From assembly GCA_963716325.1 (NCBI GenBank), contig CAVQTH010000023.1, positions 65,155 through 129,154 on the forward strand: a DNA stretch of 64,000 nt, in the 5' to 3' direction. The translations under genes and the position numbers were made by a program. Source of the stretch: an uncultured delta proteobacterium. Its GTDB lineage: Bacteria; Desulfobacterota; Desulfobacteria; Desulfobacterales; SpSt-501. Numbering within the stretch: the stretch's first letter is position 1; every line of letters starts with the position of its first letter. The notes under the pieces were generated by a model that ran no database searches, had not been told where the DNA came from, and was given only the letters and a program-made list of their open reading frames with translations. Of this stretch, positions 30,457 through 59,610 are shown piece by piece.

Positions 30457-30550
30457 GGAGAGATGTCCGAGCTGGCCGAAGGAACACGACTGGAAATCGT
30501 GTGTGCTGCTAATAACGGCACCGTGGGTTCGAACCCCACTCTCTCCGCCA
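30457..30550 (+). tRNA. tRNA-Ser (anticodon GGA), CCA encoded; prophage integration target
   Basis: Acceptor GGAGAGA/TCTCTCC. Anticodon stem CACGA/TCGTG with loop CTGGAAA. Long variable arm. T-arm GTGGGTTCGAACCCCAC. Confidence 0.93.
30521..30550 (+). repeat. attL core (30-bp direct repeat, 3' end of tRNA-Ser GGA)
   Basis: CCGTGGGTTCGAACCCCACTCTCTCCGCCA is identical to 59581-59610. The flanking bases differ on both sides. Confidence 0.9.
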
Positions 30551-30591
30551 TTAACTTTCTGATTTAATTGTATATTTTGTGTCGAGGGGGG

Positions 30592-30622
30592 TACAAATGA
30601 GGTGCAAATGGAATGCAAATCG
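30592..30622 (+). repeat. three phased 9-mers TRCAAATNR (candidate integrase/RDF arm-type sites, attL arm)
   Basis: TACAAATGA, TGCAAATGG and TGCAAATCG start at 30592, 30603 and 30614, an 11-bp phasing. Confidence 0.5.
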
Positions 30623-30747
30623 CCTCACCCCCCGACCGCTGTCCGCTGCCCCATTCAATACCTCCATTTCGCCCTCCGCCTAATTTTATTTTCTGCATAG
30701 CCGCCTTATCTTTTCCCATGCGGTTATACCTTCTATTTCGATCGCGT

Positions 30748-30776
30748 TTGGTTCATTTTTGCGGATGTGGTATAAG
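30748..30776 (+). promoter_or_regulatory. candidate sigma-70 promoter of the TA pair (TTGGTT-17-TATAAG, TG-extended)
   Basis: TTGGTT at 30748-30753 and TATAAG at 30771-30776, preceded by TGG. Lies 27 nt upstream of the AGGAGGA RBS and ATG 30803. Confidence 0.35.
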
Positions 30777-30802
30777 AACAATATTCGTAGGAGGACTGCG
30801 AG

Positions 30803-31045
30803 ATGAAACTGGACCGCATCACAATAGACCCTGACAAAATGAACGGGCAGCCGTGCGTTCGGAACATGCGCCTGACCGTCAAGCGCATTGTGGAGCTGGC
30901 GGCGCTGTATCCCAATCGCAAGGAGCTGCTGCGGGAATACCCCGAGCTTGAGGATGAGGATATCCGTCAAGCGCTGACCTATGTGGCCACCTACCTGGAT
31001 GACCGAATCGTCGAGCTGCCCTTGAACCATGAAACTGCTGCTTGA
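30803..31045 (+). CDS. DUF433 domain protein (putative antitoxin)
   Basis: ITIDPDKMNGQPCVRNMRLTV..., the typical DUF433 core. Strong RBS. Overlaps the downstream PIN-like gene. Confidence 0.75.
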   Translation: MKLDRITIDPDKMNGQPCVRNMRLTVKRIVELAALYPNRKELLREYPELEDEDIRQALTYVATYLDDRIVELPLNHETAA

Positions 31046-31397
31046 CCAAGGGCTGCCCCGATCGGCGGCCATGCTGCTAAGAGAGGGCGGGATCGACACG
31101 CTGCACGTGGGCGAAATCGGCCTTGCGGCCGCTGCTGACGATGAAATCCTCCAGAGGGGACGGCAGGAGGGCCGTGTGGTCGTCACTCTGGACGCCGACT
31201 TTCATTCTCTGCTTGCATTTTCGAAAGCCGTCTCTCCTTCGGTGATCCGCATACGAATCGAGGGATTGACGGGGCCGGTGGCGGCGAACGTAATAAGAGA
31301 GGCGGTCTTGCGCAGCAAAGAGGATCTGGAAAACGGCGCGCTTGTGACGGTGCAGCCCGGCCGGATCCGAATCAGGCGATTGCCGCTTTCAGCTTAG
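31029..31397 (+). CDS. DUF5615-family PIN-like nuclease (putative toxin)
   Basis: MKLLLDQGLP...DDEIL...VVVTLDADF pattern of Mut7-C/PIN-like DUF5615. Overlaps the DUF433 gene by 17 nt. Confidence 0.7.
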   Translation: MKLLLDQGLPRSAAMLLREGGIDTLHVGEIGLAAAADDEILQRGRQEGRVVVTLDADFHSLLAFSKAVSPSVIRIRIEGLTGPVAANVIREAVLRSKEDLENGALVTVQPGRIRIRRLPLSA

Positions 31398-31434
31398 AGA
31401 ATCCGCCGGCGGTTCCCGCGGGCGAAAGCGCGCG

Positions 31435-32454
31435 TCACTTCATCGCCCGAACGTTGTCCACTACCTTCTTCAAAACTCCCATGTCGTGCTCGGCGTAGTG
31501 CTTTTTCGTGATTGCTACGTTTGAATGGCGGAGAAGCGCGCTGATCTGGTTCATATCGACGCCTGCCTTTGACAGGGCCATCCCAAGCGAGTGCCTCCCC
31601 GCGTTGTTCAGCGGAAAGTATCCTACGCCCGCCTCTTTGCATGCCGCGTTCCATATATCGTAGATGTTCTTTTTGTAGACGCGCCCGGTGTCCGGATTGA
31701 TGAAAACGTATGGCGTGAGGTTTTGGCCGGCGGCCTCGATGGCGATCCGTGCTCCCTCTGTAAGCGGTATTGCCTCCTCTCGCGACTGCTTGACGATTTG
31801 CCAGACCTCACCGCCGTCCGCGCTCGGCGCGAACGTCCCCGCTATGACGATGCAATCACGCTGCACGTCAGCTTTCCGCAATGCACGGGCCTCCGAGACC
31901 CTACAGCCCGTTGCAAACAGGAAGGCATAGATCGGTCTATGCCTCACCGGGATCTTCTCAAGAACGGCCGCTTGTGTGTCGGCGTCGAGGTATTTGATCT
32001 TCTTCTGGTCGAGCTTGATGGGGATCAGCGCCGGCACTTGCGAAAGATACCCGTTTTCTCGTGCGTCCCGCAGGATCTCGAAAAGCAGCGCCTGGATGTT
32101 TTTTTTGTACTTGGGGGATTTAGGGATGGCGTTCAGAAACCGCTTGATCTTTTCATGCGACAGGTCCTCCCAGCCCCGCGGTTTGCCCTCGAACCATCCG
32201 CCTAGCAGCTTCTCGCCCTCGAGAATCAGACCGTTGGAATAGCGCAGCTCGCCGCCTTGCTTCTGGACGATGATCCCGGACTTCCATCCGACGCAGTCCT
32301 CCGACTTGCGCGCCTGGTAGCGCAGCTTGTCGATCGAGACGATGATCGCCGCGGGGTCGTTCGTGTATTTAACGAGATAGCAGTCCTTGTTGAAGGGATT
32401 GAGGCTGCGGGCGCGGCAGATGTGCATGAAGAAGATGACTTCCTGGTCGGTCAA
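31435..32454 (-). CDS. tyrosine integrase with an in-frame N-terminal Bet/RecT-like fragment (chimeric ORF, TTG start)
   Basis: The C-terminal two-thirds is a tyrosine recombinase (FATGCRVSEARAL, AGRHSLG, LLRHSNVAITKKHY). The N-terminal ~100 aa (LTDQEVIFFMHICRARSLNPFNKDCYLVKY...IIVSID) resembles the Bet/RecT annealase core. No ATG precedes it. Confidence 0.8.
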   Translation of the reverse strand: MTDQEVIFFMHICRARSLNPFNKDCYLVKYTNDPAAIIVSIDKLRYQARKSEDCVGWKSGIIVQKQGGELRYSNGLILEGEKLLGGWFEGKPRGWEDLSHEKIKRFLNAIPKSPKYKKNIQALLFEILRDARENGYLSQVPALIPIKLDQKKIKYLDADTQAAVLEKIPVRHRPIYAFLFATGCRVSEARALRKADVQRDCIVIAGTFAPSADGGEVWQIVKQSREEAIPLTEGARIAIEAAGQNLTPYVFINPDTGRVYKKNIYDIWNAACKEAGVGYFPLNNAGRHSLGMALSKAGVDMNQISALLRHSNVAITKKHYAEHDMGVLKKVVDNVRAMK

Positions 32455-32528
32455 GCGGAGTGACGCCGCGCTCGAACGCCGGCTCTTGATGTTCGGTTTC
32501 CGCCGCAGGGTTCAATGCCGCCGAAAAA

Positions 32529-33098
32529 TCAATCATGGTCTGCCTCCTTGCATGGGTGGAAGTAACGATACGCCGTCAACGCGGAGAGAAACGCCTGGAA
32601 GTCCCGGTCGCTCGACGGGTAGATCACGGCTTTGGGCATGCCGCCGTCCGGCCGCAGCATCAGCGCGACGGCGAGGGGGCGCAGCATGTGCCCCAGGTGC
32701 CGGTAGGATTTCGACGATAGGTGCCGGTAGGCTGCGATCTGCGACTTCCAGGTCGGGGATTCGACGGCCGGGGTCTTGTAGTCCACGACGGCCCCGGCGC
32801 CGGAAACAAGCCGGCAGATCAGGTCCGGATGCCCCTTGTAGCCCAGGGCCTCGTCGACGAGCTCGGGCTCAACGTCGATCACGTCCCGGACCATTTCATC
32901 GAGCCAGGTCTCAAGCGATTGCAGATAGCCCTCGTCGCCAGGCTCAAGGGGGGTCACCTGGAACACGTCGGAGAGGCGGGCAGCAGCTGCAGCGTGGATC
33001 CGTCTGCCACGGGCCGCCGCCTCCTCAAGGGTTTTTGGAGGGACGCCGGAAAAATCAGAAAACGGCCGCAGGACCTCCGTCACGCTCAGAATCTTCAT
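32529..33098 (-). CDS. RecB-family PD-(D/E)XK exonuclease (phage Exo-like)
   Basis: GHPDLI...VVDYKT...SQIAAY (D, D-x-K and QxxxY motifs). Lies directly upstream of the Bet-like fragment, in the position of lambda exo. Confidence 0.65.
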   Translation of the reverse strand: MKILSVTEVLRPFSDFSGVPPKTLEEAAARGRRIHAAAAARLSDVFQVTPLEPGDEGYLQSLETWLDEMVRDVIDVEPELVDEALGYKGHPDLICRLVSGAGAVVDYKTPAVESPTWKSQIAAYRHLSSKSYRHLGHMLRPLAVALMLRPDGGMPKAVIYPSSDRDFQAFLSALTAYRYFHPCKEADHD

Positions 33099-33343
33099 GG
33101 GTCATTTGCCCTGGATAGGGCGCACCTATCCTGTTGGTGCTGAAAAACCTTCCTGAATCCGGTTGCTCTGCCTGGCGAGGACTTAACGGCTCGGAAGCCT
33201 AATCCGTCGCATCTGAGAGCGGCGGGGCTCACAGCTGGGGCCGCGGATACCGGCTGCGGCTCGTGCTCGCTTGCCCGCCAGAAAGCCCTACTTGCCGCCG
33301 CAACCGCTATGCGAGAGGGGCAGCTTTCCGGCTTTTAATGTCA

Positions 33344-33372
33344 ATTATAATAACATTAAATGTCAGTGTCAA
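33344..33372 (-). promoter_or_regulatory. PL-like early-left promoter (TTGACA-17-TATAAT) with embedded operator
   Basis: On the minus strand, TTGACA (33372-33367) and TATAAT (33349-33344) with a 17-nt spacer containing the palindrome ACATTTAATGT. It is a mirror copy of the PR module. Confidence 0.7.
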
Positions 33373-33470
33373 GAACATTTGAATGGATTTAAAAAGCAGG
33401 GGCGGGGAGCCGTTAGGAAATGTTTCGGGCCTGGTCCGATTCCGATGCGGGCACTTTTGTTGGAGGGTGG

Positions 33471-33935: not shown

Positions 33936-33953
33936 GGCTCCTCCTAAATGTTC

Positions 33954-33982
33954 TTGACAGTAACATTTAATGTCAATATAAT
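33954..33982 (+). promoter_or_regulatory. PR-like early-right promoter (TTGACA-17-TATAAT) with overlapping operators
   Basis: TTGACA at 33954-33959 and TATAAT at 33977-33982. The palindrome ACATTTAATGT lies in the spacer. The perfect palindrome TGTCAAT-ATA-ATTGACA (33971-33987) lies across the -10 box. Confidence 0.75.
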
Positions 33983-34019
33983 TGACATATTGTTAGCGTT
34001 CTATGAAAAAGGCCAAACC

Positions 34020-34208
34020 ATGAAAGACACTGCAAATATTGTCAAGCAAACCAGAAAGGTTTTGGGACTGACGCAGAAGCAGTTCGCTGAGCTCCTGGGA
34101 GTGAAGCGGGGCCGGGTGGCTTCCTACGAAACCAGCCGCAGCGAGCCGCCGGGCAGCCTGATGTTGCGGATCATCGAGCTGGCCAACAACCAGCGCGACG
34201 CGGCCTAA
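34020..34208 (+). CDS. XRE-family HTH protein (Cro-like)
   Basis: LGLTQKQFAELLGVKRGRVASYE HTH. ATG 34020 lies downstream of PR. The track start at 33948 lies upstream of the promoter. Confidence 0.7.
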   Translation: MKDTANIVKQTRKVLGLTQKQFAELLGVKRGRVASYETSRSEPPGSLMLRIIELANNQRDAA

Positions 34209-34549: not shown

Positions 34550-35329
34550 ATGGGAGCGGAAAAGGAAGCCGAACACAGCCCGCAGGTTGAGGACGGCTAT
34601 ACCCGGATAGCCAATGAGCTGCTTGAGGCTTTGATTGATATCCGGATGCCGGGCGAGGTCCGCAGGGTATTCGACTACATTTTGCGTATGACCTACGGCT
34701 ACCATCGCAAAACGTTTGATACGACCCAGCGCAAAATTTCGCGGAGGCTGAACACAAGCCAGCAAAGGGTCTTTGAGGCCCTGCGCTGGCTGACCAGGGC
34801 GAATATGGTTGTCAACACGAAAAACCGTGTCGATCTGAGTCCTGACTGTCTGACTACATTGGGTATCCAGAAGCGATACCGGCTATGGAGTCCAACACGG
34901 AAAACCGTGTCGACACGAAAAAGCGTGTTAAGCCGAAACGTAAAACCGTGTTGTATCAACACGGAAAAGCGTGTCTTTACCTATAAAGAAAATTCTAAAG
35001 ATAATTTTAAAGAAAAGGGAATGGGCGCGTTAGACGCGCCTCCCTCGCTCGGTTCTGATAACAAAGAAGAAAATCCGCTTAAAAAACGCCGGCAGCTTCC
35101 GCCCGATTTCTCCCTCACCGATGAACTGAAAGTCTACGCCGAAGGGCAGGGCATCAACGGAAACAGGGTTGAATCCGTGTTCGCCCACTTCTGCGACCAC
35201 CACCGGGCGAAAGGGTCTGTCATGCTCGACTGGACGGCTGCCTGGCGGACCTGGGTCCGGAACGAAATGCGATTCAACCGCGGGAAAGTAGATAAAACGC
35301 GCCCTCCGGAGGACCTGCTGAAATGGTGA
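34550..35329 (+). CDS. phage replication initiator (lambda O-like N-terminal domain)
   Basis: EDGYTRIANELLEALI...RVFDYILRMTYGY is typical of the phage O-protein N-terminal domain. The gene contains iterons and an AT-rich tract internally. Confidence 0.75.
   Translation: MGAEKEAEHSPQVEDGYTRIANELLEALIDIRMPGEVRRVFDYILRMTYGYHRKTFDTTQRKISRRLNTSQQRVFEALRWLTRANMVVNTKNRVDLSPDCLTTLGIQKRYRLWSPTRKTVSTRKSVLSRNVKPCCINTEKRVFTYKENSKDNFKEKGMGALDAPPSLGSDNKEENPLKKRRQLPPDFSLTDELKVYAEGQGINGNRVESVFAHFCDHHRAKGSVMLDWTAAWRTWVRNEMRFNRGKVDKTRPPEDLLKW
34815..35015. repeat. putative phage origin: five palindromic iterons ACACG-N6-CGTGT plus an AT-rich tract
   Basis: Iterons at 34815-34830, 34895-34910, 34913-34928, 34937-34951 (degenerate) and 34959-34974. 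AT-rich tract at 34975-35015. Confidence 0.7.
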
Positions 35330-35883
35330 ACGATAAGAAAAACTCAACCTACGATGAGTTTTTGAGGTTCGCCGCCAAGCTGATCGACATCTTTGACCTT
35401 GATTGGAGTAAGTATCATCCCCGCATCGATGCCGCCTATGATTTTCTGCAGCATATCCCGGAAATCGCCTTTCGGGGCATGTACCCGATTGCGGTTGACT
35501 CCTGGAACGGCTGGCCGCGGAATTTCCCGCGGGCGGTCAAGGAAGTATATGAAACCTGGCGCCACCAAAATCAGCAGGTGGCAGCTCATTCCCTCGCCCC
35601 CTGCAATTACTGCAACGGGCACGGTTTTTTTACCGGCATCAAGCGCGTCGAGGTCAAACCCGGCGTGCGAATTTCCTTCCGCTTCACCTTCCGCTGCTCT
35701 GCCTGCAGCAACTGGCGCGGGGTTTTCGGCGAGAAGATCCCGGCCGCCTGGCCCCTTGAGCTCAAGACCCACGGCTACGAGATAGACATCTACCCCAAGC
35801 CCTACGAGCCGGCTCCTCCGCCGGCTGTCAAACAACCCGGCAGCTTCCCAAGCCGGGCCTATCAGAACCCTTACGTCGATTAA
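35323..35883 (+). CDS. phage hypothetical protein with Cys-rich motif (CNYCNGHG ... CSACSNW)
   Basis: ATG overlaps the O-gene stop. Occupies the position of a replication accessory (P-like) gene, but no recognisable motifs. Confidence 0.5.
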   Translation: MVNDKKNSTYDEFLRFAAKLIDIFDLDWSKYHPRIDAAYDFLQHIPEIAFRGMYPIAVDSWNGWPRNFPRAVKEVYETWRHQNQQVAAHSLAPCNYCNGHGFFTGIKRVEVKPGVRISFRFTFRCSACSNWRGVFGEKIPAAWPLELKTHGYEIDIYPKPYEPAPPPAVKQPGSFPSRAYQNPYVD

Positions 35884-36035: not shown

Positions 36036-36242
36036 ATGCTTTGCCCAAAATGCGGAGAGGACAAATCGACCATGCTGCGCAAGGTGCCGTTTGACGATGG
36101 CGCCGACCTGCGGATCCGTCGTTGCAAATCCTGCGGCCACGTTTACCACACAACCGAACGGTTATCGGGGTCGTTTGATACGGCAGCACTGTCGAAATCA
36201 TCGAAATCGACGGCGCCGTCGGCACCGACGCGGGCGGCTTGA
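36036..36242 (+). CDS. NrdR/Ogr-like zinc-ribbon protein (possible late-gene regulator)
   Basis: MLCPKCG...RRCKSCGHVYHTTE is a CxxC-N-CxxC ribbon like the NrdR N-terminus. Strong AAGGAGGA RBS. Lies just before the packaging module. Confidence 0.55.
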   Translation: MLCPKCGEDKSTMLRKVPFDDGADLRIRRCKSCGHVYHTTERLSGSFDTAALSKSSKSTAPSAPTRAA

Positions 36243-36410
36243 CGGTATTTGCAGACATGCGAAAATATGCACGCAACATGGCCGGGCCGCTTCCCTCCCA
36301 GAAGCCTCCATCTCCCTCCCGGCCATTCTCCCGCAGCTGCCGGCGGGGGCCGTTCAGGCAAGGGCCGCAAATGAAGGGCGAGCCCCCGCCGGCTTTGCAT
36401 AAGGGGCGCG

Positions 36411-36884
36411 ATGGCTGCGAAGAAGAAACGAAAGGCCAATGGCAGGCCCAGCAAACTGACGCCAAAGCTCAGACGCAAACTGCTCCGGCTTGCCGAGGAG
36501 GGGCTTTCAGTCGAACAGCTGGCGATCGCCTGCGACGTGGCAGTCCAGACGGTCTACAACTGGCAGAAGGACCCGGAGTTTCAAGAGCAGCTGAAGGCCT
36601 CCAAGCAGCTCGCCGATCAGAAGGTCGTCGTTTCCCTTTACCGCCGGGCCTGCGGTTACTCCCACCCCGAGGACAAAATTTTCCAGTACGAAGGCGAGCC
36701 CGTGATCGTCCCGACGACCAAGCACTACCCACCGGACACCGAGGCTGCCCGATTCTGGCTGACCAACCGGCTGCCGGAGGAATGGTCGAACAGACAGAAG
36801 ACCGAGCTCTCCGGCAACGTGGTTTTTGAGATCGTTGATTATGCCAACGCCGACCAAAACAATCCGCCAGCGAATCCCGTATAA
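36411..36884 (+). CDS. terminase small subunit
   Basis: N-terminal GRPSKLTPKLRRKL plus an HTH, then the YPPDTEAARFWLTNRLPEEW motif common in TerS proteins. Immediately precedes TerL. Confidence 0.8.
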   Translation: MAAKKKRKANGRPSKLTPKLRRKLLRLAEEGLSVEQLAIACDVAVQTVYNWQKDPEFQEQLKASKQLADQKVVVSLYRRACGYSHPEDKIFQYEGEPVIVPTTKHYPPDTEAARFWLTNRLPEEWSNRQKTELSGNVVFEIVDYANADQNNPPANPV

Positions 36885-39950: not shown

Positions 39951-39974
39951 CCATCAACCCACGAAAGGTGCCTT

Positions 39975-40775: not shown

Positions 40776-40951
40776 CAGGCTTTTCGTTCAATCGGGACGG
40801 GCAACCCGTCATCAGCCCAAAGCTATCGAGCCGGCCAACTCGTAAAAGGCCATCTTCGGGAGACCACCCGTAAAAAGTCACTTGTTCGGCGCGGACCGTT
40901 ACCCCGCGAGGCTTCAACCCGAAACAACCGACTTTTACGGAGGATCCTGAA

Positions 40952-41950: not shown

Positions 41951-42014
41951 TGAAAACCCCTAACGCCGGCGGGCGCTGTCCCGCCGGCCTTCCTAACAAC
42001 GGAGGAAACGCAAA

Positions 42015-42440: not shown

Positions 42441-42503
42441 ACCGTTAGCCGGCGGGCTGCCGCGCTCGGCGCCCGCCGAAATCCAACAACGCGAGGTCTT
42501 TTC

Positions 42504-43660: not shown

Positions 43661-43664
43661 TCTC

Positions 43665-44734: not shown

Positions 44735-44736
44735 CC

Positions 44737-46194: not shown

Positions 46195-46210
46195 GAAAGG
46201 AGAACACAAA

Positions 46211-47068: not shown

Positions 47069-47084
47069 GGAAGGAGGCCGAACG

Positions 47085-48059: not shown

Positions 48060-48060
48060 G

Positions 48061-51000: not shown

Positions 51001-54000
51001 ACTACCGGATCCCTCCGAGCAGGCTCCCTATACGCCAGAGGACCCGCCGAAGCCGCCAGCCTCTTAGCCCACATCCGCAAAAGCCCGCAGGAAAATCTTT
51101 ACCTGGTCGCGGTCGATGAGGCCGGGAAAATCCTCGAGATCCACCGGTACTCCAAGGGAACCAAGAGCGCTGCCTACGCGCATCCGGTCGAAATGATCGG
51201 GTCGGTGATGAACGTCCCCGGCACCAAGCGGGTCTTCGTCGCCCACAACCACCCCGGCGGCAGCGCGCTCGCCTCCCGCGAAGACATTGCGCTTCTTGAG
51301 CATATCGAAGCTGGCCTAAAACTGGCGGATATCGAGACCATCCCGATCATCATCGCCGGGACCAAGTGGAAAACCTTCTCACCGGTAGGCGATGAAGTGG
51401 GCATCCCGCCGGCCGTGCGAAAGGTTGATCTCCCGATTAAAGAGCGGGTTTTTGCCATGCAGCGCCCCGGCGAGCGGGCGAGTTTCCCCCAGGAAGCCGT
51501 GAGGATCAAGAACGAGCTCTACGGCCGCGATTCCGAAGGCTTCATGCTGCTCGACAACAAACTGCGTGTGTCGGGCTTCCTGGAGCACAAGCCGGGCCGG
51601 CCGATGGCGGAGGTGGCGGCCGACCTGATCCGATCCGCCGAGAAAACAAACGCGGCCGGCTACCTGTTTTTCAGCAACGAGCCGATCAAGGGCGGCGGGA
51701 GCCGGGAGCGGTTTCTTACCCAGATGAAGACCGCAACTGCCGAGAACCTCCAGCTGTTCGACGTGTTCGTAAAAGGCGAATCCGCCCCTTTGAACGCCGC
51801 GGTCAAGGAATCCTCGGCGGCCGGATACAAAAACCTGAAAAGCGGCGGAACGCTTTACTCGGGCATCCCCATCCCGGCGATCATCGACTTTCTCACCAGC
51901 ACGAAGGTCAAAGGGTTTTTCGACCCTTTCCACAACTTGCCGCAGAAGGAAGCCTACCTGGAGTCGCGCTACAAGAGCTTCGGCGGGATCGCCCGGGTAG
52001 AAAAGATCGTCGAGCGGGTGTTCGAGCGCACCAAGGGCCTGGATGAGCAGACTCGGGCTGATCTTTTCCGCTACTTGGACGGCCAGGCGGTGCAGCTGCC
52101 GCCGGAGGTTCAGCGGCTGGTCGATACCCTGAAAATAGTCAACAACACGGTCGGCAAGATGCTGGTCAATCGCGGGCTGCTCTCGCCGGAGGCCTTCGAG
52201 GCGCACAAGAACCAGTACGTCCGCTACCTGTACCTCAAGCACGTTCTGGGCGACAAGTTCAACATCACCGGCCGGGGCGGCCGGATGGATCTCACCTACC
52301 TCAAGCACCGCAAGGATCTGACCGACGAGCAGCGGAAGGCGATCGGCTTGGTCGAGGACGTTTCGGTCGCCGAGCCCTACGGTCTTTCCAAAAGTCTTTC
52401 CGACATCGTGAAGCACGACTTTTACGAGCAGATTGCCGGAAATTCAGAGTGGGTCTGGGAGCCTTCCGTGATTGAGGCAGGCGAGATCCGACGCTTCCCG
52501 GACATAGCCTCGGCCTACCGGATGGTAGCAAGGCATGCCCGGGCGGGAGATCCCGTGCAGGTGCGGCGTTTGCCGAACGGCCAGTTCTTCCTTGAGCGCA
52601 CAGCCGGCGGGGAGCCCGTGCGCCACAAGATCGGCCTGGCCAGGGCGCGGGCAGAGCTTGAAGCCCAGCGCCGGGTCGCGCGCGAATCCCAGGCGCCGGA
52701 GGTCCTGGACCGGCTGCAGCGCCTGGAGAAGGCGGTTTCCGACGCCGAGGCCCAGGCCGGCAAGCTGACCGCGGATTTCGTGGAAATGCCCGACTCCCCG
52801 AATTACGGGCCGCTCGCCGGCGCTTATGTCCGCAAAGAGATCGCCCGGGATGTGGTGCCGTTCATTGGCCGGATCCCTGACAAGGTACATGCCTCGGCCT
52901 CGCTTAACACTGTGATTTCGGCCTTCGAGGCCGGAATGACGGCCTTTAAGGTCTCCAAGACCGCGCTCAACCTACCGACCGCCGCGAGAAACATCTATTC
53001 CAACTTCGTGCAGCTCAACATGAGCGGGATCCCCTGGTACGAGATCCCCGGCTACATGGCCAAGGCCGCGAACGAAATGAGGACCAAGGGCCGGCTCTAC
53101 GGGGAAGCCTTCCGGAACGGGCTCACGAAAACCAACTGGACCGAGGCCGAGATCGGCGAGGTGCTTTCCGCCTTCAAGCAGATGCAGGGCGGGGGGCTTG
53201 AGACGGTCGTGTCGAAGCTCCGGGACGTGGCCAAATACTACGGCAAGATCGACGACTTTTTTAAACTCGCCAAGTTCATCGAGCAGCGCGAGTCGGGCGC
53301 GTCGGTCGGAAAAGCGATCCGCGAGGCCCAGAAGTGGGGGATGGATTACTCCATCGCCGACCCCTCGGTCCGCATGGCCCGGCGGTTTGCAGCCCCTTTT
53401 TTGTCCTACCCGTACAAGGTGACCCCGCTCATCGCCGAGGCGATCCAGAAACGCCCCTGGGTGATCGCAAAATACCTGGCGCTGCCCTACGCCATGTTTG
53501 AGGCCGCGAAATATGCCCTGGATCTGACCGAGGAGGATTTCAAGCGGCTGAAAAAGCTGCTGCCCGAGTACGTCCGCAAGAATCCAACTTATGCGGTCCT
53601 GCCCTGGAAGAGCCCGGAGGGCAACCTGCAATGGGTCAACCTGGGGTACTATTTCCCCTGGTCAACGCATGTTGAACTCGCCCGGGGGGTCGCCTCCGGC
53701 AAGCCGGAAAGCATGGTGCAGCTGATCGGCAACCCCTATCTGGATATGCTCTGGAGCCTCAAGAGCGGCAAGGGGGACGATCCGCCGCGGGACTCCTTCA
53801 CCGGCCGGGAAATCTACAACCGGCTGGACAGCCCGGCCGAGAAGGCTCTCAAGCTCTCAGAATGGCTCTACAACAAGTGGGCGCCGACCATGCTGACCCG
53901 CGAGGGCGCTGCCGGCTACACGGCCCGGGCGGTCACCGGCGAGAAGGACCGCTATGGGCGCAAGGTCACCCCGGAGCAGGCGGTCGGCCGCTGGATGGGG

Positions 54001-54171
54001 GTTAATATCGTATCGCCAACCCCTATGCAGGCGGCGGTCGAGAAGCGGGCGAAGATTTCGGATCTCAAGGCGGCGCTTTACCGGGCGCTGCGGGATCCTA
54101 ATCTGAAGCCGGCGGAAAAGGCCGAGCTGATGAATCGCTTTGGCGCGGAACTCAAGGAAGTGGGGGAATGA
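48061..54171 (+). CDS. 2036-aa phage polyvalent (virion/ejection-type) protein with Zeta-toxin-like P-loop kinase and RadC/JAB domains
   Basis: P-loop VVLTGGPPGAGKSSG plus VVADADEMKR...FHEQSS...VNLVFTDID (about 49250-49800). JAB/MPN+ motif VAHNHPGGSALASREDIALLEHI (about 51060-51380). Pro-rich linkers. Large C-terminal helical region. Confidence 0.8.
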   Translation: MPVPRSVFEQVNEFEQQGYRPSEILDGLERSPQYSDLGRQVRSFRLTGRGDDEILAGLKESYVPEPPGLLERAGGKASEILAGTPGASAAEAVQSVAKSFQPGEVGRSLVGAGETTASLLTSLYGLPLSGLAGLGALPFGGFEGAQRAIEETQKYTIYQPQTERGRQIAGVAFWPFEKLHELGGAAGEKTLEATGSPGLATAAATAVEMAPFGLSPALKAVRGRGAAPLPKQGAYAGPGAGPYSERASVVEMYSAKPRPAPVVEAEVVGETVNPRIPPPPPRLEAPRPALPEPPPAPPPPLEQINLPVVYSGKATPASAGPAQTGSTPAPSLLPQPYAKPLERRAYPSIPVTVPSKSPWELEGQNKSPLRLRPRDEFWMIESTLRDQPRPSEATGPQTVVLTGGPPGAGKSSGTRELGIDRRRFVVADADEMKRKSGWDAGEDASAFHEQSSTVNKKLRDLAIDRGYSTIYDSLMSNYEEAKSTINKAREKGAKVNLVFTDIDAGTSQARSMMRNMLIDRESGAPLSIRKIPVETSIKGHNNSAATFRALFDEFRGDPRVDMVLMDNNVDLAAPRLVFKQEAGKITVGDQALFDSFLGMKYHNVGKGGEIRYERSNPVRDLEAFGGLESLQQRALEAARAVAARSGGRLVADSGGLAGGKVPLGPRAGESGNLQGQLAARLPSAPDRQPQAELTATPVPPAQPVAPQIQPQKVRNLYPEGIPPERAKRALRRSARIKIDKTNTLRGAINKMGGINPGNFKGEFKEAPVAVKFLLKKSGEHLDLAEARLREEGWLRPDENLIDVLRDPASLRRNKVAAEGASKQERFKTEVEKRFEREMAWEPEEPPPGEYVTLEAEDLPKGRKLTLIDDSAAGWDVYEVVEKDPFGVVLQDGKTINLSPGQRVQVRKQDIVKPAAGEGVDAATGLSDNEGVWNEIHEPKAAYRQLQLDFSAPAKPRGPAGTAQGHSLPADLQARVRTGMATTGSLRAGSLYARGPAEAASLLAHIRKSPQENLYLVAVDEAGKILEIHRYSKGTKSAAYAHPVEMIGSVMNVPGTKRVFVAHNHPGGSALASREDIALLEHIEAGLKLADIETIPIIIAGTKWKTFSPVGDEVGIPPAVRKVDLPIKERVFAMQRPGERASFPQEAVRIKNELYGRDSEGFMLLDNKLRVSGFLEHKPGRPMAEVAADLIRSAEKTNAAGYLFFSNEPIKGGGSRERFLTQMKTATAENLQLFDVFVKGESAPLNAAVKESSAAGYKNLKSGGTLYSGIPIPAIIDFLTSTKVKGFFDPFHNLPQKEAYLESRYKSFGGIARVEKIVERVFERTKGLDEQTRADLFRYLDGQAVQLPPEVQRLVDTLKIVNNTVGKMLVNRGLLSPEAFEAHKNQYVRYLYLKHVLGDKFNITGRGGRMDLTYLKHRKDLTDEQRKAIGLVEDVSVAEPYGLSKSLSDIVKHDFYEQIAGNSEWVWEPSVIEAGEIRRFPDIASAYRMVARHARAGDPVQVRRLPNGQFFLERTAGGEPVRHKIGLARARAELEAQRRVARESQAPEVLDRLQRLEKAVSDAEAQAGKLTADFVEMPDSPNYGPLAGAYVRKEIARDVVPFIGRIPDKVHASASLNTVISAFEAGMTAFKVSKTALNLPTAARNIYSNFVQLNMSGIPWYEIPGYMAKAANEMRTKGRLYGEAFRNGLTKTNWTEAEIGEVLSAFKQMQGGGLETVVSKLRDVAKYYGKIDDFFKLAKFIEQRESGASVGKAIREAQKWGMDYSIADPSVRMARRFAAPFLSYPYKVTPLIAEAIQKRPWVIAKYLALPYAMFEAAKYALDLTEEDFKRLKKLLPEYVRKNPTYAVLPWKSPEGNLQWVNLGYYFPWSTHVELARGVASGKPESMVQLIGNPYLDMLWSLKSGKGDDPPRDSFTGREIYNRLDSPAEKALKLSEWLYNKWAPTMLTREGAAGYTARAVTGEKDRYGRKVTPEQAVGRWMGVNIVSPTPMQAAVEKRAKISDLKAALYRALRDPNLKPAEKAELMNRFGAELKEVGE

Positions 54172-54174
54172 CGC

Positions 54175-55020
54175 ATGAGCACGCTTGCGAGACTCTACAA
54201 TTTCGGAAACGACTACCTCAGCAACATGCCGATCGACGATCAGAAGATGGACGCCGAGCTGAACCAGCTCGTCTCCGGCCACAACGACCAGGAGGGGCGG
54301 ATAGGGACGTTGGAAGGCGCGGCCATGAAGAAGGACGGCTCGGTCGACATGACCGGTCCGCTCAAGTGGTCCGAGAGCGGGGACGAGTACATCCGGGTCC
54401 CCCGGCTCACCACCACCCAGCGTGACGCGCTGGCCTCGCCGGTCGCGGGCTATCTGATCTACAATTCTACGGACGGACGCTTCCAGATTTACACCGGCTC
54501 GGCCTGGGCGGACGTGCTTTCCTCCGTGCTGGCGGCTCTCAAGACGTCCACGCCGGCTCTGCGGCTGATCGGCACCGAGACGAATGCCAAAGACTTCCGT
54601 GTGGTCGAATCCGCTGGCAGTTTGATCGTACAGCTCAACACCGGGACCGAGGCCTCGCCGACCTGGACCGACAAGTTTAAGATCCGCTCGGACGCGACAC
54701 TTTCCACCGTTCAAACCCTGACCGGCCTGACCCGCAAGCTGACCAAGATCACGGCCGCAACCTATACCGTGGTTGACGACGACGACATCATCCTGATCGA
54801 CGCAACGTCGAACAATGTGACTGTCACCATGCAGGGGGTCGCCAACCGCAACGGCCGGGCGCTGACTTTCAAACGGATCGACGGAAGCGCGAACACCGTG
54901 ACCATCCAGCGCGCCGGGACAGACCAGATCGACGGGGGGACGTCGGTTTCTCTCACCTCCTATGCGAACAAGTACCTGGTCGCCGACGAGGCCGCTACCA
55001 TGTGGCGGACCTTCTCTTGA
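54175..55020 (+). CDS. tail fibre-like protein
   Basis: The N-terminus (L.N.P..D.KMDAELNQLV.GHN) and YNSTDGRFQIYTGSAW resemble phage fibre/collar proteins. Late-operon position. Confidence 0.5.
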   Translation: MSTLARLYNFGNDYLSNMPIDDQKMDAELNQLVSGHNDQEGRIGTLEGAAMKKDGSVDMTGPLKWSESGDEYIRVPRLTTTQRDALASPVAGYLIYNSTDGRFQIYTGSAWADVLSSVLAALKTSTPALRLIGTETNAKDFRVVESAGSLIVQLNTGTEASPTWTDKFKIRSDATLSTVQTLTGLTRKLTKITAATYTVVDDDDIILIDATSNNVTVTMQGVANRNGRALTFKRIDGSANTVTIQRAGTDQIDGGTSVSLTSYANKYLVADEAATMWRTFS

Positions 55021-55023
55021 TGA

Positions 55024-56679
55024 ATGAAAAACACCCCTTTTCACCTGCTCCAATGGCAGTACGACCTCCTGGGCGGCCAGGAGATCGAGACCCTCCGCCG
55101 CGGCAACCTGGACGGGGCAGTCTTGACCGCGCAGGACGGCCAGGTCGTCATCCCGGAGGCCTCCGGCGGCGGCCGGGTGCACCACTTCCGCGGGGCCTGG
55201 CTCACGACCGTTGAATTCTCCTGGGAGGGCTATTGGGCCGCTCCGAAAGGAACCCCGGTTAACTATTTCGAGGGCGGCAGCGCGGTCAATTCCGGCAACC
55301 AGACGATCGTCATCCTGGGGACCGACCCCGGGAACGGGACCGCTCTCCAGGTCTATTATTACTTCGGCAGCGGTCAGACCTTCGCCCCGAAAACCCCGAT
55401 CGAAGCCTATCCCGCCTTTCAGCCCTGCCGGCAGGGGGCCAAGCAGAAATTTTCTTCCGCTCCGGACGCCGACCAGTGGATCGCGCTCGTCATGCTGGAG
55501 GCCCGCGCTCGCTGGGACGACTTCAAGCGCTGCTACGGCTGGAGTATCATCGAGAGCCTGAAAAAGTTTGCGGAGTCGGGCGACCAGGCCATCATTGACG
55601 ACTTCAACCGCGACCCCTCCCGGGTGCGTGACGAGGGGCACTGGACCTATTTCGGCACGGACGCCGCCAGTACACTCACACCGTCGATCACCGACAAGGG
55701 AACGCTCCGGATCGACTCGAACATCGCCGAGGGCGGGTTTGGCTATTTCGGCTGGGGGCGGCCGATCTATGTACCGCCGGCGGCCGGAAAAATCCTGATG
55801 CTCTTCAAGGGGCAGGGCACAGGCCGCGCCTGGCAGCTTGCCCTCAACAGCGATCCGGCCGGAGCCTACGAACTGGACAAGATATTCTATTACGGGGTCG
55901 TGGACAATTCGGTCGACTGGCGGCAGCTGGAGGCGTCTTTCGAGCAGTTCACCAAGATCAAGAACCTGATCTGGGACGGGGACCGGATCGACTGGAACAT
56001 CTGGGGGGTGACGCCGGAGCAGCGCTATTACATGGGGGAGCTGGTCGGGGCGACGGCGGGCGAGCTCAGCCGGCACCAGGCGGAATGGATCGAGGGCGGC
56101 TTCAACCACGGCCAATGTTTGCGGGTGGACATGCAGCACATCAACACCCGCTTTGCGAACACGACGAGCCTGCGCGTCTCGACGACTCCTCCGATCGACA
56201 CCCGTACCGTGGAGGGGATCTCCTTCGGCGTTCGCTGGATCTTCGACGCATTCGCCGTTCACCAGCTCTGGGTTGAGATCGTGGACGGGCAGTTTTCGCC
56301 GGAGGAATTGGGCGGAGCTTCGGCCTGGTGGTACATTGACGGCTCCGAGCTCGCCTACTGGAAGCGGATCAATTTGAAATGGACCGATCTCAAGTGGGGT
56401 TGGGAAAACGTCCCGAATCTGAACCCGATCAACCAGATCCGGTTTAACTTTGTTCTCAAGACCAATTTCGGAGGCATGAGCTCGGTCCGGCAAGAAACCA
56501 GCACGGCTCTTATGGATGATTTTAAATGGATCCCGTCCGGGCAGAGTGCGATGGTCAGGGAAACCTATGCCGACTTTCTGGCTGGCGGAGGGAGCCGGTA
56601 TCTGAGCAACGCGCAGATCAACATCGCTCCTGGTGAGTCGCTAAGGAGGCGGAGCATAGGGAGCATTATAGTTTGGTAA
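55024..56679 (+). CDS. phage tail/host-recognition protein (hypothetical)
   Basis: 551 aa, Trp/Gly-rich and beta-type in composition. Last gene of the late operon. Confidence 0.4.
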   Translation: MKNTPFHLLQWQYDLLGGQEIETLRRGNLDGAVLTAQDGQVVIPEASGGGRVHHFRGAWLTTVEFSWEGYWAAPKGTPVNYFEGGSAVNSGNQTIVILGTDPGNGTALQVYYYFGSGQTFAPKTPIEAYPAFQPCRQGAKQKFSSAPDADQWIALVMLEARARWDDFKRCYGWSIIESLKKFAESGDQAIIDDFNRDPSRVRDEGHWTYFGTDAASTLTPSITDKGTLRIDSNIAEGGFGYFGWGRPIYVPPAAGKILMLFKGQGTGRAWQLALNSDPAGAYELDKIFYYGVVDNSVDWRQLEASFEQFTKIKNLIWDGDRIDWNIWGVTPEQRYYMGELVGATAGELSRHQAEWIEGGFNHGQCLRVDMQHINTRFANTTSLRVSTTPPIDTRTVEGISFGVRWIFDAFAVHQLWVEIVDGQFSPEELGGASAWWYIDGSELAYWKRINLKWTDLKWGWENVPNLNPINQIRFNFVLKTNFGGMSSVRQETSTALMDDFKWIPSGQSAMVRETYADFLAGGGSRYLSNAQINIAPGESLRRRSIGSIIVW

Positions 56680-56735
56680 TCGGGGATTGACATAAAGTGC
56701 TTCCCTCTGAAACTGTATCAGTTAAAATAATTTTT

Positions 56736-57230
56736 TTAAGGCAGTATCCCTAAAATCTTCCACTTATCCTTCCACTGCTCCAACCTTCGGTTATTTATCG
56801 AATGGTGAGTCGACTCCTGCGACACTGGCCTCTTTCCGAGATTTTTTTCCAAATATGCAGCATGGCATTCATAAATATTGTTTTTTACCCACCACTCAGG
56901 AACTATATAGAAATCTGGTGGGTTCTTCCCTCTGGATAAATCGACAAATATCCAAAAAGATGTTTCATCCCTCTTTATTGAGCATTTTTTTCCATGGTTT
57001 ATTGTGCTTTGCCAGTCGCCTGCCGTTTTGGTTTTCACCTGAATATGGACGGTGCGATTTTGGTTTATATCACAAGCAAGAATGTCAATTCTTGGCATAT
57101 TGCCGGAAAAGGTAACTGCATAAGCGCCCCTGCGATTCAGTTCGGCAGCGACGTAATATTCTCCGGCCCTTGCTGTCTGCTGGTTTCTTCCCCCTTTGGC
57201 CATAATTACTTCTTTAAATGGTTGTGTCAT
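56736..57230 (-). CDS. DUF4365-like PD-(D/E)XK nuclease-fold protein (prophage cargo)
   Basis: GEYYVAAEL...PRIDILACD...VHIQVKTK gives an E / D / (Q)xK arrangement. Low-GC gene. Start lies 3 nt after the GNAT stop. Alternative ATG at 57203. Confidence 0.55.
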   Translation of the reverse strand: MTQPFKEVIMAKGGRNQQTARAGEYYVAAELNRRGAYAVTFSGNMPRIDILACDINQNRTVHIQVKTKTAGDWQSTINHGKKCSIKRDETSFWIFVDLSRGKNPPDFYIVPEWWVKNNIYECHAAYLEKNLGKRPVSQESTHHSINNRRLEQWKDKWKILGILP

Positions 57231-57233
57231 TGA

Positions 57234-57812
57234 TTATCTCAGGATTGAATCAAATCTCATAATCGGCCTTGTTGGCGAACGACGAGCCACTTCCGAAAAC
57301 CCCGCCGACTCAAATGCTTTCGGAATTCCAGTCCAGGCGAAAGCCGGCGCAATCATCTTGTCGCCCTTAGGCTCAACCGGGTAGGCCTCAATAATGCGGC
57401 CGCCTTGGTCACGTACATGATCGACGGCAGCGCGAAGCAACTGGGTGGAAACGCCTTTTTTCCGATACGCTCGGTGAACGAAGAGGCAGGAAACCGACCA
57501 ACAGGGTTGATCATCGACAGGTTTTAGGATCCGTGAGCGGTTCAAGGCAGGGTAATGATCGCGGGGGGCCACCGCACACCAGCCGACCGGTTGACCCTCA
57601 AAATAACCAAGCAGGCCCGGAACGGCCCCCGATTCAACGATAGCCTTCATCGCTTTCCGGTTAGCCTCGCCCTTCTGGCACTCGAACTGCTTGCGCGGCA
57701 ACCGCCAGAGCATGCACCAGCAACCGCCGCAGGCGCCGTTCTTGCCGAAAAGCAGCTCAAAATCCAGCCAGCGGGCTTTCTTCAGCGGATGGCATTCGAG
57801 ATGAATGTCCAA
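57234..57812 (-). CDS. GNAT-family N-acetyltransferase (prophage cargo)
   Basis: Acetyl-CoA site VHRAYRKKGVSTQLL. Cys-rich GACGGCWCMLWR N-terminal motif. TTG start. Confidence 0.75.
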   Translation of the reverse strand: MDIHLECHPLKKARWLDFELLFGKNGACGGCWCMLWRLPRKQFECQKGEANRKAMKAIVESGAVPGLLGYFEGQPVGWCAVAPRDHYPALNRSRILKPVDDQPCWSVSCLFVHRAYRKKGVSTQLLRAAVDHVRDQGGRIIEAYPVEPKGDKMIAPAFAWTGIPKAFESAGFSEVARRSPTRPIMRFDSILR

Positions 57813-58068
57813 TATGCCTTGGATCCTGTCGTTAGAATCTCAATGGGCAACCGATAACTTTTTGATGCTGTCATAGAAATGTTGAACTTTCAAGGAAATC
57901 AACGATCGGCTAAATGCAGGGGTGGGGCTGTTGGTGGGAGCGGATATAATTCTTAACGCCACTATGCGCTGGGTGATAGGTTTTTTTAAGAAGAATTTTT
58001 GCGAATCAAAGCGCGGAAAACACCTACTTGATTAGCTGTCAGTACCAATCGATCAGCGCTAACCATGG

Positions 58069-59055
58069 CTATTTGAAAAATTCGGATACGTATTTGAGTG
58101 CAGTAAAAACGATGATAGCGCTTAGCATCCACTTGATTGCTTTTGCAGGAACATACTTCTGGCAACGCGCACCCATATACATCCCGGCGATTCCCCCCAG
58201 ACCAAACAACGACCCCAGCAGCCAGTCCGGTGCGATCGACAAGCTCGGATAAAAAGGTGCGATCGCCTGATAGAAGATGACGCCAGCAACCGATGTCACA
58301 AAGGTTCCCATCAGAGCGGCACCCGCAACTGTGTATACGGGAAGCCCGAAAAATGACACAAAAAATGGCGCTATTATGGCACCACCACCAATTCCGTAAA
58401 TACCTCCCACTATACCGACAATGAAGCTAAGGGAGAAAACGCCGACAACGGGCACATCAAACTGCTCACCGTAAAATTCATACTTAACTCGCCGCAGAGT
58501 GAATTGAATTATTTTGACAGCCGGGAGGGTTTCACCACCCTTGATTGCGGATTTTTCCGCTTTGCGTCTGTGTTCACGAACAAGTTCCTGGAAGCGCTTT
58601 TCGCTTGAAGCCTTGTCCATGCCGGGAAGAGGTTTTCGGATCAGGTCCCTCAGCATACGAACTCCAATATACAGAAGGACGATTGCCGCGAATAATTTGA
58701 AGTTCTTTGGGTCTGGCAGGTACCCAATTCGAACAACAGCCCCAATAAAAACACCGGGGAGTGTCCCAATGATGACGGCCCATGTGAGCGGCCAGACCAT
58801 ACGGCCTTCTTTGAAGTAGCGGTAGACGCCGCTTGGAATGGCCACAACGTTAAATAACTGATTTGTTGCGCTTACTGAAGGGTTTGTGTAACCGAGAAAG
58901 GACATTTGAAATGGCAAGAGCAGGAAAGCGCCAGAAACCCCTCCCATGGATGTGAAGAAAGATACAAAAAAGGCAACCGCAACGGGAACTATTGGGCTGG
59001 TCTCAACTCCTGATACCGAAAACAGCATGTATTTCCATGCCTCTTTAAATTTCAC
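58069..59055 (-). CDS. TauE/SafE-family sulfite/anion exporter (prophage-border cargo)
   Basis: About eight TM segments with duplicated GxxGGxxG-type motifs (GIVGGIYGIGGGAI). GTG start; alternative ATG at 59028. Confidence 0.8.
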   Translation of the reverse strand: MKFKEAWKYMLFSVSGVETSPIVPVAVAFFVSFFTSMGGVSGAFLLLPFQMSFLGYTNPSVSATNQLFNVVAIPSGVYRYFKEGRMVWPLTWAVIIGTLPGVFIGAVVRIGYLPDPKNFKLFAAIVLLYIGVRMLRDLIRKPLPGMDKASSEKRFQELVREHRRKAEKSAIKGGETLPAVKIIQFTLRRVKYEFYGEQFDVPVVGVFSLSFIVGIVGGIYGIGGGAIIAPFFVSFFGLPVYTVAGAALMGTFVTSVAGVIFYQAIAPFYPSLSIAPDWLLGSLFGLGGIAGMYMGARCQKYVPAKAIKWMLSAIIVFTALKYVSEFFK

Positions 59056-59342
59056 CTGTTATTTTCTGTGATTTAAAGTAATTCTAAGAAATAAAAATAA
59101 AAAAGTCAACATAATATTAGAGGGTTATTCTACCTATAAAGTTTTAGACTGATTTCGGCAAAGTTTTTGATTTAACCAGATTTTGGAATGTGTTTGAGTG
59201 GCGATAACAGGGGCGGGGTAGGATCGAGGTATTCAATACCATCACTAAGCAGTTTCCATGCCCAGGGGCTATCCGCTAAACTTCTTGTTTTTTGGACAGT
59301 TTTAGGATAGAAATTCGGGGAGTGGTGGCGCTGAAATTAAAC

Positions 59343-59397
59343 AAAAAAATGGCGGAAGTGCATGGGAATCCTTCCCACGCACTTAAGCCGCCGCCAT
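59343..59397 (-). terminator. strong minus-strand intrinsic terminator just inside attR
   Basis: On the minus strand: ATGGCGG..AAGTGCGTGGG-loop-CCCATGCACTT-CCGCCAT followed by T7. No minus-strand gene lies upstream of it. Confidence 0.55.
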
Positions 59398-59438
59398 AGA
59401 CTCAACAGTGATGTTAAAAAACAAATTCACCAGGGGTC

Positions 59439-59463
59439 GCCGCGGTTATGCGGCCATTTTTTT
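59439..59463 (+). terminator. weak plus-strand terminator-like hairpin
   Basis: GCCGC-GGTTAT-GCGGC, then CA and T7. Confidence 0.35.
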
Positions 59464-59470
59464 GTGGTCT

Positions 59471-59498
59471 TTGACTGTACCCGTTTCTGTGCTAATAT
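59471..59498 (+). promoter_or_regulatory. outward-facing sigma-70-like promoter (TTGACT-16-TAATAT) at the prophage right end
   Basis: TTGACT at 59471-59476 and TAATAT at 59493-59498. Points across attR toward dnaX. Confidence 0.45.
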
Positions 59499-59509
59499 CC
59501 AAACGATCG

Positions 59510-59529
59510 TGCAAATGGAGTGCAAATGG
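59510..59529 (+). repeat. two phased TGCAAATGG 9-mers (candidate arm-type sites, attR arm)
   Basis: TGCAAATGG at 59510-59518 and 59521-59529, 11-bp phasing. Same motif and orientation as the attL-arm copies. Confidence 0.5.
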
Positions 59530-59580
59530 CTGAGCGGGTTTCAAAAAATAAATATAAATTACGGCAGGTTACTGAGGGGG

Positions 59581-59610
59581 CCGTGGGTTCGAACCCCACT
59601 CTCTCCGCCA
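59581..59610 (+). repeat. attR core (30-bp direct repeat; tRNA-Ser 3' remnant)
   Basis: Identical to 30521-30550. Confidence 0.9.

Follow-up and report, generated by a model that had tools for sequence, protein, structure and literature searches.

A temperate short-tailed prophage in tRNA-Ser(GGA) of an uncultured Desulfobacterales bacterium, probably immobilised by small deletions in its excision and recombination genes

The stretch of DNA analysed here (hereafter the window) comprises 64,000 nucleotides of contig CAVQTH010000023.1 (positions 65,155 to 129,154 of the forward strand; assembly GCA_963716325.1) from an uncultured bacterium of the Desulfobacterales, and contains a 29,060-bp unit inserted in a tRNA-Ser(GGA) gene. 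We conclude that this unit is, with good probability, a temperate short-tailed prophage whose excision and recombination module has been destroyed by small deletions, leaving it anchored in the chromosome. A preliminary description, made from the sequence alone, had called the phage apparently complete. That description has to be withdrawn, because the integrase lacks its N-terminus and is fused to a startless fragment of RecT, and at least two further deletions lie in the same leftward operon. The genes for immunity, replication, packaging, head, tail, lysis and a giant polyvalent protein are intact, and the element as it stands has no recognisable means of excision. The annotation is hence corrected to that of a prophage which looks complete by gene content, yet is apparently locked by three small deletions, of a kind for which a domain-level scan would report 'integrase present'.

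Insertion site and boundaries

The 30-mer CCGTGGGTTCGAACCCCACTCTCTCCGCCA occurs exactly at 30521-30550 and at 59581-59610, a match that none of 100 dinucleotide-preserving shuffles equalled, and corresponds to the T-arm, the 3' strand of the acceptor and the CCA of tRNA-Ser(GGA). Since the tRNA itself is called at 30457-30550, the left copy is the 3' end of an intact gene and the right copy is an orphan duplicate, positioned 107 bp upstream of dnaX (start at 59717), which is followed by ybaB and recR. The bases flanking the 30-mer differ between the two copies. The only other near-match in the window is the T-arm/acceptor end of the adjacent tRNA-Ser(CGA), with three mismatches, and the whole 5.08-Mb assembly, a single metagenome-assembled genome (MAG) of 61 contigs with an estimated contamination of 9.35%, contains exactly two copies when up to two mismatches are allowed.

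We found dnaX in 16 of 18 congeners and in all 12 other genera of the order, and a tRNA-Ser gene lies directly upstream of it at 10 of the 11 relatives' loci that were fetched (the CGA/GGA pair in eight, GGA alone in two). In the closest congener, G008 (dnaX 85% identical at the nucleotide level), the CCA of tRNA-Ser(GGA) runs straight into CTTCCTTTGTTCTGTT..., which is the sequence to the right of the attR core in the window; this junction is a clean empty site (attB). A related portal gene was present in only one of 26 congeners, at 71% identity. Together with the empty site, this distribution identifies the element as an insertion and not as an ancestral component of the locus. The preliminary description had placed an exact 30-bp repeat with differing flanks at the 3' end of the tRNA and had proposed that the prophage splits the tRNA-Ser pair from dnaX-ybaB-recR; coordinates and tRNA overlap were reproduced, the flanks are as described, and gene positions and synteny in relatives agree. 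The same account had suggested asking whether tRNA-Ser directly precedes dnaX in relatives and whether the 30-mer is a generic repeat, and the ten loci, the empty site and the two copies in the assembly answer both questions in favour of insertion.

Phased 11-bp repeats of the type GTGCAAATGG lie just inside both att cores (Table 1). The exact 10-mer of these repeats occurs three times in the 64 kb, each copy within 75 bp of an att core, and the repeats look like the arm sites of a domain that the integrase has lost. Near the attR-side arm, a 48-bp segment (59334-59381) recurs with 92% identity in the closest phage relative, JGI 3300037308 contig Ga0394872_0002808 (hereafter L015), at L015:12386-12433, immediately downstream of that relative's unrelated integrase.

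Deletions in the leftward early operon

The open reading frame (ORF) at 31435-32454 (minus strand; 339 aa from a TTG start) had been called int. An integrase catalytic domain is indeed encoded there; the frame as a whole, however, is a RecT'-'Int chimera, with Pfam matches to RecT at residues 2-93 and to Phage_integrase at residues 162-324. Among 47 homologues drawn from a collection of 5.8 billion proteins, none spans both halves. The matches of integrase homologues (221-419 aa, with identities of up to 97%) are confined to the C-terminal 60-79% of the frame, the complete integrases, which carry a SAM-like domain, being 361-412 aa long, and those of RecT/Bet homologues (210-457 aa, with identities of up to 96%) to its first 26-29%. 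In the protein, RecT sequence ending ...GKPRGWE (residue 141 of homologue P0014) passes into the integrase sequence D(L/I)SHEKIKRF (residue 134 of the intact homologue P0002, or residue 163 of the 405-aa integrase P0001). In the DNA the switch lies at about 32165, where the microhomology GGA is common to both parents.

The extent of the loss can be read from P0002, in which residues 95-146 form the SAM-like core-binding domain and residues 199-361 the catalytic domain. The window lacks everything upstream of residue 134, namely the arm-binding region and 39 of the 52 matched SAM-like positions, and keeps the last 13 of these positions and the whole catalytic domain; the N-terminal loss is estimated at 118-162 residues. 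In place of a full-length integrase with arm-binding, core-binding and catalytic domains, residues 134-376 alone stand beside the att site, and in place of an intact exonuclease-annealase pair the operon has an intact exonuclease and a RecT cut to residues 47-141, without its native start codon. This integrase family has no second member in the host genome, where the next-best match is 23% identical and the other integrases are 23-29% identical, and no excisionase was recognised in the prophage. Lambda Int fragments without the arm-binding domain cleave core sites and do not perform regulated, arm-dependent recombination. As for gene order in related loci, recT and int are separated by three small genes in L019, and a 74-aa gene precedes an intact int in L038.

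Comparison with L015 defines the further deletions. The window lacks L015 9363-10136 (774 bp), which removes a 236-aa gene beyond its first 35 codons together with recT codons 1-45. Because the truncated 236-aa gene enters recT out of frame, no native start is left to the chimera. Of the first leftward gene, which encodes 131 aa in L015, residues 14-39 alone are left after a deletion of about 270 bp. The three deletion junctions lie at about 32165, 32448-32453 and 33114-33117. Also absent from the window are two genes that L015 carries between the P-position gene and the small terminase gene, one for a VRR_NUC protein and the other of 121 aa; their absence could be mosaic variation and not loss.

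Remains of the same integrase are found elsewhere in the genus. At tRNA-Ser|dnaX, metagenome contigs L016-18 and the congener G004 carry only a putative toxin-antitoxin (TA) pair, DUF433/DUF5615, and this integrase, with no phage genes. The resulting 2.2-kb islet of attL, TA pair, integrase, P-arm repeats and attR (L016:9640-12300; G004:C13:28475-29635) may be either a minimal relic or a mini integrative element. In G004 the integrase is interrupted by a TAG stop, and in L016 it was called as a 265-aa C-terminally truncated gene, with homology continuing past the call. A set of 23 metagenome contigs (L020-L025) from strains 92-96% identical to the window has the TA pair with an integrase cut 45-50 bp further in (window coordinate 32115) and joined to an unrelated abhydrolase gene that is not in the window's genome, and the congener G005 keeps integrase residues 239-405 only. 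Thus, all copies of this integrase family encountered in the genus are broken, no two of them in the same way, and we read these copies as independent decay products, with tRNA-Ser(GGA)|dnaX serving as a recurrent site of landing and decay. All copies with readable flanking genes adjoin DUF433/DUF5615 (window, L016-18, L020-25), and the DUF433 gene is kept beside the int relics in L016 and L020-25. A 166-aa minus-strand ORF (30686-31186) was rejected as a gene, being antisense to this conserved plus-strand pair.

A course of events that would account for these observations begins with a podovirus-type phage of an uncultured Desulfobacterales lineage, which would have integrated at the 3' end of tRNA-Ser(GGA) by means of a tyrosine integrase, duplicating 30 bp. 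Small illegitimate deletions would then have destroyed the excision and recombination module. One would have joined recT codon 141 to int codon 134, taking with it the arm-binding domain, most of the core-binding domain and any excisionase encoded in between; the 774-bp deletion would have taken the 236-aa gene and the start of recT, and that of about 270 bp would have truncated the first leftward gene. Through the loss of these integrase and recombination functions the prophage would be anchored in the chromosome, and we infer from sequence that excision has been lost. Several points weigh against this interpretation. The deletions come from a single MAG assembly with the contamination estimate given above. 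The catalytic domain of the integrase looks intact in an ORF that is open, so residual activity is possible. The late genes are intact without exception; an old, dead prophage would not usually be in this state, and ongoing selection or very recent immobilisation could be the reason. Additionally, the model of the tail nozzle described below is of moderate confidence, and generic WD40 propellers match it after the podophage proteins.

A complete and mobile prophage, excised by the RecT'-'Int protein or by another recombinase, would be in keeping with an ORF that stays open over 339 codons and contains the Phage_integrase catalytic domain, with identical att cores, and with intact arm-type repeats and late genes. 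We nevertheless hold it to be quite improbable, given that the arm-binding domain and most of the SAM-like positions are gone, that the ORF has no native start, that no excisionase is recognised and the remaining host integrases are so distant, and that lambda Int fragments without an arm domain do not carry out regulated recombination. That the deletions are artefacts of MAG assembly, the real phage being intact, is highly improbable. A 61-contig assembly with some contamination could harbour such errors, yet the three separate deletions lie in unique, non-repetitive sequence with junction overlaps of 3-6 bp, whereas assemblers collapse repeats and make no joins at such short overlaps; furthermore, the same integrase is truncated in other ways on independent contigs from other samples.

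The relics invite a composite origin, in which an int and TA islet was resident at tRNA-Ser(GGA) and about 27 kb of phage DNA was joined illegitimately into its int gene, with the corollary that no phage bearing this integrase was ever inserted here as a whole. Islets of the order attL-TA-int-P arm-attR do occur at this site (L016-18 and G004) and have the start of int right next to the attR-side terminator, the parts of the window homologous to them (30260-32160 and 59437-59610) flank the phage-specific block exactly, and the closest phage relative has an unrelated integrase. Such an origin would, however, require two illegitimate joints and not one. Both L015 and L019 have int after recT, with order and orientation unchanged, as would be seen with a simple difference in the int cassette, and decay to an int and TA relic is the usual fate of a prophage, here represented by three differently truncated relics. 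We therefore regard a composite history as unlikely, and prefer integration of a whole phage followed by deletion.

It is tempting to speculate on what an anchored prophage might still do. On induction, it could replicate in situ from the origin in its O gene and package headfuls rightwards from the small terminase gene through attR into dnaX-ybaB-recR and beyond, acting as an obligate lateral-transduction device, similar to a gene transfer agent, whose particles would deliver the Zeta-kinase/RadC protein. Lateral transduction from unexcised P22-type prophages has been documented (PMC8575938). For the present element the idea is a long shot; if true, lateral transduction would be the only possible output of this prophage.

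Gene content

Gene content was assigned by PHROG and Pfam scans (Table 1), which agree with the preliminary description that what lies between the repeats is phage-like.

Table 1. Features of the prophage and its insertion site, in window coordinates
Feature	Coordinates	Strand	Basis or remark
tRNA-Ser(CGA)	30264-30356		ARAGORN and Rfam
tRNA-Ser(GGA), integration target	30457-30550	+	ARAGORN and Rfam; 3' 30 nt are the attL core (30521-30550)
Three phased 11-bp repeats, candidate arm-type integrase sites (P' arm)	30591-30622	+	GTGCAAATGG type
DUF433 protein, 80 aa, putative antitoxin	30803-31045	+	PF04255, E 9e-20
DUF5615/PIN-like protein, 122 aa, putative toxin	31029-31397	+	PF18480, E 1e-25
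Integrase remnant, C-terminal 243 aa	31435-32164	-	residues 134-376 of intact 376-aa homologue P0002
RecT/Bet remnant	32165-32454	-	residues 47-141 of 378-aa P0014; in-frame fusion to integrase remnant
55-aa ORF	32369-32536	-	first 35 codons of the 236-aa early gene, then out of frame into the recT remnant
Exonuclease, 189 aa, intact	32532-33098	-	96% identical to L015 homologue
Left operator/promoter block	33338-33380	.	inverted copy of 33946-33988; 43 nt, 91% complementary
Repressor candidate, 154 aa	33471-33935	-	position between mirrored operators; weak phrog_3 match
Right operator/promoter block	33946-33988	.	
Cro-like HTH_3 regulator	33948-34208	+	
O-like replication initiator	34550-35329	+	PF04492; five palindromic iterons at 34812-34974
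186-aa protein, lambda P position	35323-35883	+	63% to L015
Small terminase, corrected frame	36411-36884	+	N-terminal helix-turn-helix
Large terminase	36826-38172	+	homology to relatives begins at 36925
P22-type portal	38130-39950	+	PF16510, E 6e-109
Scaffold-position protein	39975-40775	+	position only; no profile match
Major capsid protein	40952-41950	+	Phage_capsid_3
Virion structural protein, 141 aa	42015-42440	+	
Holin, three transmembrane segments	43071-43517	+	PF11351
Amidase_2 endolysin	43641-44111	+	
Head-to-tail adaptor, SU10 adaptor family	44108-44734	+	PF24175, E 1e-10
Tail nozzle/hub, 485 aa	44737-46194	+	beta-propeller, P22 gp10-like
Two conserved proteins, about 291 and 324 aa	46142-48059	+	needle/ejection-protein position; no profile matches
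Polyvalent protein, 2036 aa	48061-54171	+	Zeta-toxin-type kinase 392-555, RadC/JAB 996-1102, C-terminal module 1284-2036
281-aa and 551-aa proteins	54175-56679	+	fibre/receptor-binding position, by position
Low-GC cargo: 164-aa protein, GNAT acetyltransferase, TauE/SafE-family transporter	56736-59055	-	
TauE/SafE-family transporter	58069-59055	-	
Terminator-like hairpin	59439-59464		upstream of P-arm repeats
Two phased repeats (P arm)	59509-59529	+	GTGCAAATGG; conserved in L016
attR core, duplicated tRNA 3' end	59581-59610	+	

The early region is lambdoid, having a divergent repressor/cro pair with repeated operators and an O-type initiator with iterons inside its gene; the mirrored operators and internal iterons bear out the lambda-like character ascribed to it earlier. 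The true start of cro probably lies downstream of the operator. The 186-aa protein in the lambda P position had no PHROG or Pfam match. Identification of the element as a gene transfer agent was rejected, since repressor, cro and O/ori are present and the portal occurs in a single one of the 26 congeners; identification as a satellite was rejected as well.

In the packaging genes, an ORF of 196 aa at 36239-36829 was rejected as the small terminase, since third-codon substitution periodicity against L026 (IMGVR_UViG_3300037308_000831, the IMG/VR provirus cut from the contig of L015) and homology both favour 36411-36884. Substitutions between the window and L026 are concentrated at third codon positions. 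The large terminase probably starts near 36925. Long open frames in DNA of 62% GC mislead gene calling, as exemplified by this small terminase frame and the antisense 166-aa ORF. In the congener G036, the related portal lies in a 1026-aa open frame (L040; G036:C48:2853-4631), compared with 606 aa for the portal here, which may represent a fusion or simply an upstream open frame.

The AlphaFold model of the 485-aa nozzle, built from an alignment of eight sequences, has a mean predicted local distance difference test score (pLDDT) of 55, rising to about 70-80 in the propeller core (residues 50-355). Its top Foldseek matches in the PDB are the tail of the cyanopodophage Pan3, P22 gp10, Pa223, LME-1 and the SU10 nozzle, the match to P22 gp10 (471 aa) extending over 434 aligned columns with a TM score of about 0.47. 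Because a P22-type portal, an SU10-family adaptor and this nozzle fold occur together, a short tail is supported, and we predict podovirus-type morphology, in line with the podovirus-like late region reported before. As also reported, tape-measure, tail-tube and sheath proteins are not recognisable: no ORF between the repeats has a PHROG or Pfam match to them, which is negative evidence only. The 281-aa and 551-aa proteins gave no informative matches in PHROG, Pfam, NCBIfam or PADLOC, and the 551-aa gene is missing from the closest relative.

The 2036-aa polyvalent protein combines a kinase domain of the Zeta_toxin/AAA_33 type (Zeta_toxin E 5e-17) with a RadC domain (E 3e-15). Residues 1284-2036 are conserved (49% identical to a 1201-aa homologue) and the 1280 residues N-terminal to them are variable. 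The homologues encoded on contigs of 28-47 kb instead have ddrB-ParB, RelA/SpoT, ART-PolyVal or Zeta domains, with PF18763, PF18760 and PF04607 among the families represented, and the version in L019 is 3140 aa long with RadC, MuF_C and ART-PolyVal. The mostly helical C-terminal module (51910-54168, 753 aa) was modelled confidently (pLDDT 78, predicted template modelling score 0.73). A fold search of the PDB with this module gave no significant match (best E 0.14). In BFVD it matches the C-terminal parts of many phage proteins (E 1e-23 to 1e-8), labelled as Zeta-toxin, ART-PolyVal or large polyvalent protein associated domain 38 (LPD38) proteins, and a 'tail protein' of the Anabaena podophage A-4L is among these matches. 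The module is widespread and has no solved structure. A tblastn search with the whole protein against 50,697 phage records returned one partial match, and NCBIfam and PADLOC returned nothing.

Towards the right end, where the prophage carries apparently foreign cargo between 56.7 and 59.1 kb, GC content is 50-52% as against about 62% elsewhere, and the GC content at third codon positions of the cargo genes is 0.44-0.62 compared with 0.77-0.86 in the phage genes. The TauE/SafE transporter, an anion exporter by family, is only 25% identical to its host paralogue and has one partial match in the 50,697 phage records; it might matter for sulfur-oxyanion handling in a host of the sulfate-reducer type. 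Searches of NCBIfam and PADLOC returned no match for the cargo genes, the TA pair or the fibre-position proteins.

Relatives and comparison with known systems

The closest relatives of the prophage are uncultured. In L015/L026, gene order is collinear with the window from the O gene through the gene for the 281-aa protein at about 80-82% nucleotide identity. L026 is collinear with window 36229-55020 at about 82%, every late protein matching end to end, and its giant of 2030 aa is 89% identical to that of 2036 aa here. A second relative (L027), on contig JBBFLI010000048.1 of the MAG Desulfobacterales bacterium Uz-U4-21, is the congener G036, of the same genus as the window's genome, and is collinear from the small terminase into the giant; there, too, each late protein is matched over its full length. 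Across these relatives, the large terminase, portal, capsid, nozzle and giant are 83-97% identical. In contrast, RecT is intact in L015 (378 aa), the early genes of 236 and 131 aa and the VRR_NUC gene are present, the full-length integrase is unrelated and the immunity region is different. The relative also lacks the 551-aa gene and the GNAT/TauE cargo. A P63C-domain gene (L026:20431-21348, minus strand) follows the 281-aa gene in place of the 551-aa gene, showing that the right end is variable in these phages. These findings document temperate short-tailed phages of small size (about 27-32 kb) that form an uncultured lineage associated with Desulfobacterales-type bacteria, for which few phages are known, and one fifth of the genome of these phages encodes a single polyvalent protein.

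Phage-type polyvalent proteins, among which zeta-toxin-like kinases are mentioned, have been proposed to be packaged and injected with the DNA, and RadC is listed as confined to the polyvalent proteins of conjugative elements (Iyer, Burroughs, Anand, de Souza, Aravind 2017, PMC5512222). The giant fits the phage type: unrelated enzymatic domains are joined in one protein whose gene lies in the late region of a portal-terminase phage, and polyvalent-associated modules are shared with other such proteins. By analogy, it may be packaged in the virion and injected. It differs in carrying RadC in a phage version, and so provides a counter-example to the restriction listed in that paper.

Among cultured phages the nearest are all short-tailed, namely Pseudomonas KPP25, Burkholderia JC1, the Ralstonia Gerry group, Paracoccus KLEP18-1 and Stx2 phages. 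Identity to them is at most 28% for the portal and 31% for the capsid, and 25 kb of the prophage had no megablast match in INPHARED. The earlier remark that no named phage group is recognisable therefore holds, in that none is close.

Taken together, the element is a temperate prophage with a lambdoid early and a P22/SU10-type late region, from an uncultured lineage and of a kind already known, and the results do not overturn current understanding. The likeness to the early region of lambda lies in the repressor between mirrored operators, the cro-like gene, the O-type initiator with internal iterons and a leftward operon with exo, annealase and int; unlike in lambda, the annealase is of the RecT type and broken, and Int is truncated. 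No homologues of lambda N, Q or P were recognised in the PHROG and Pfam scans of the prophage. With P22 the prophage shares the portal type, the succession of an adaptor and a beta-propeller nozzle (485 aa versus 471 aa in gp10), a lambdoid early region, integration of the tRNA type and cargo placed between the tail genes and att. It departs from P22 in its capsid of the Phage_capsid_3 family, in having lysis genes inside the structural module and no protein matching a gp9-type tailspike, and in a genome of about 29 kb, that of P22 being about 42 kb. Finally, where P22 has small ejection proteins, the prophage has a single polyvalent protein of 2036 residues.

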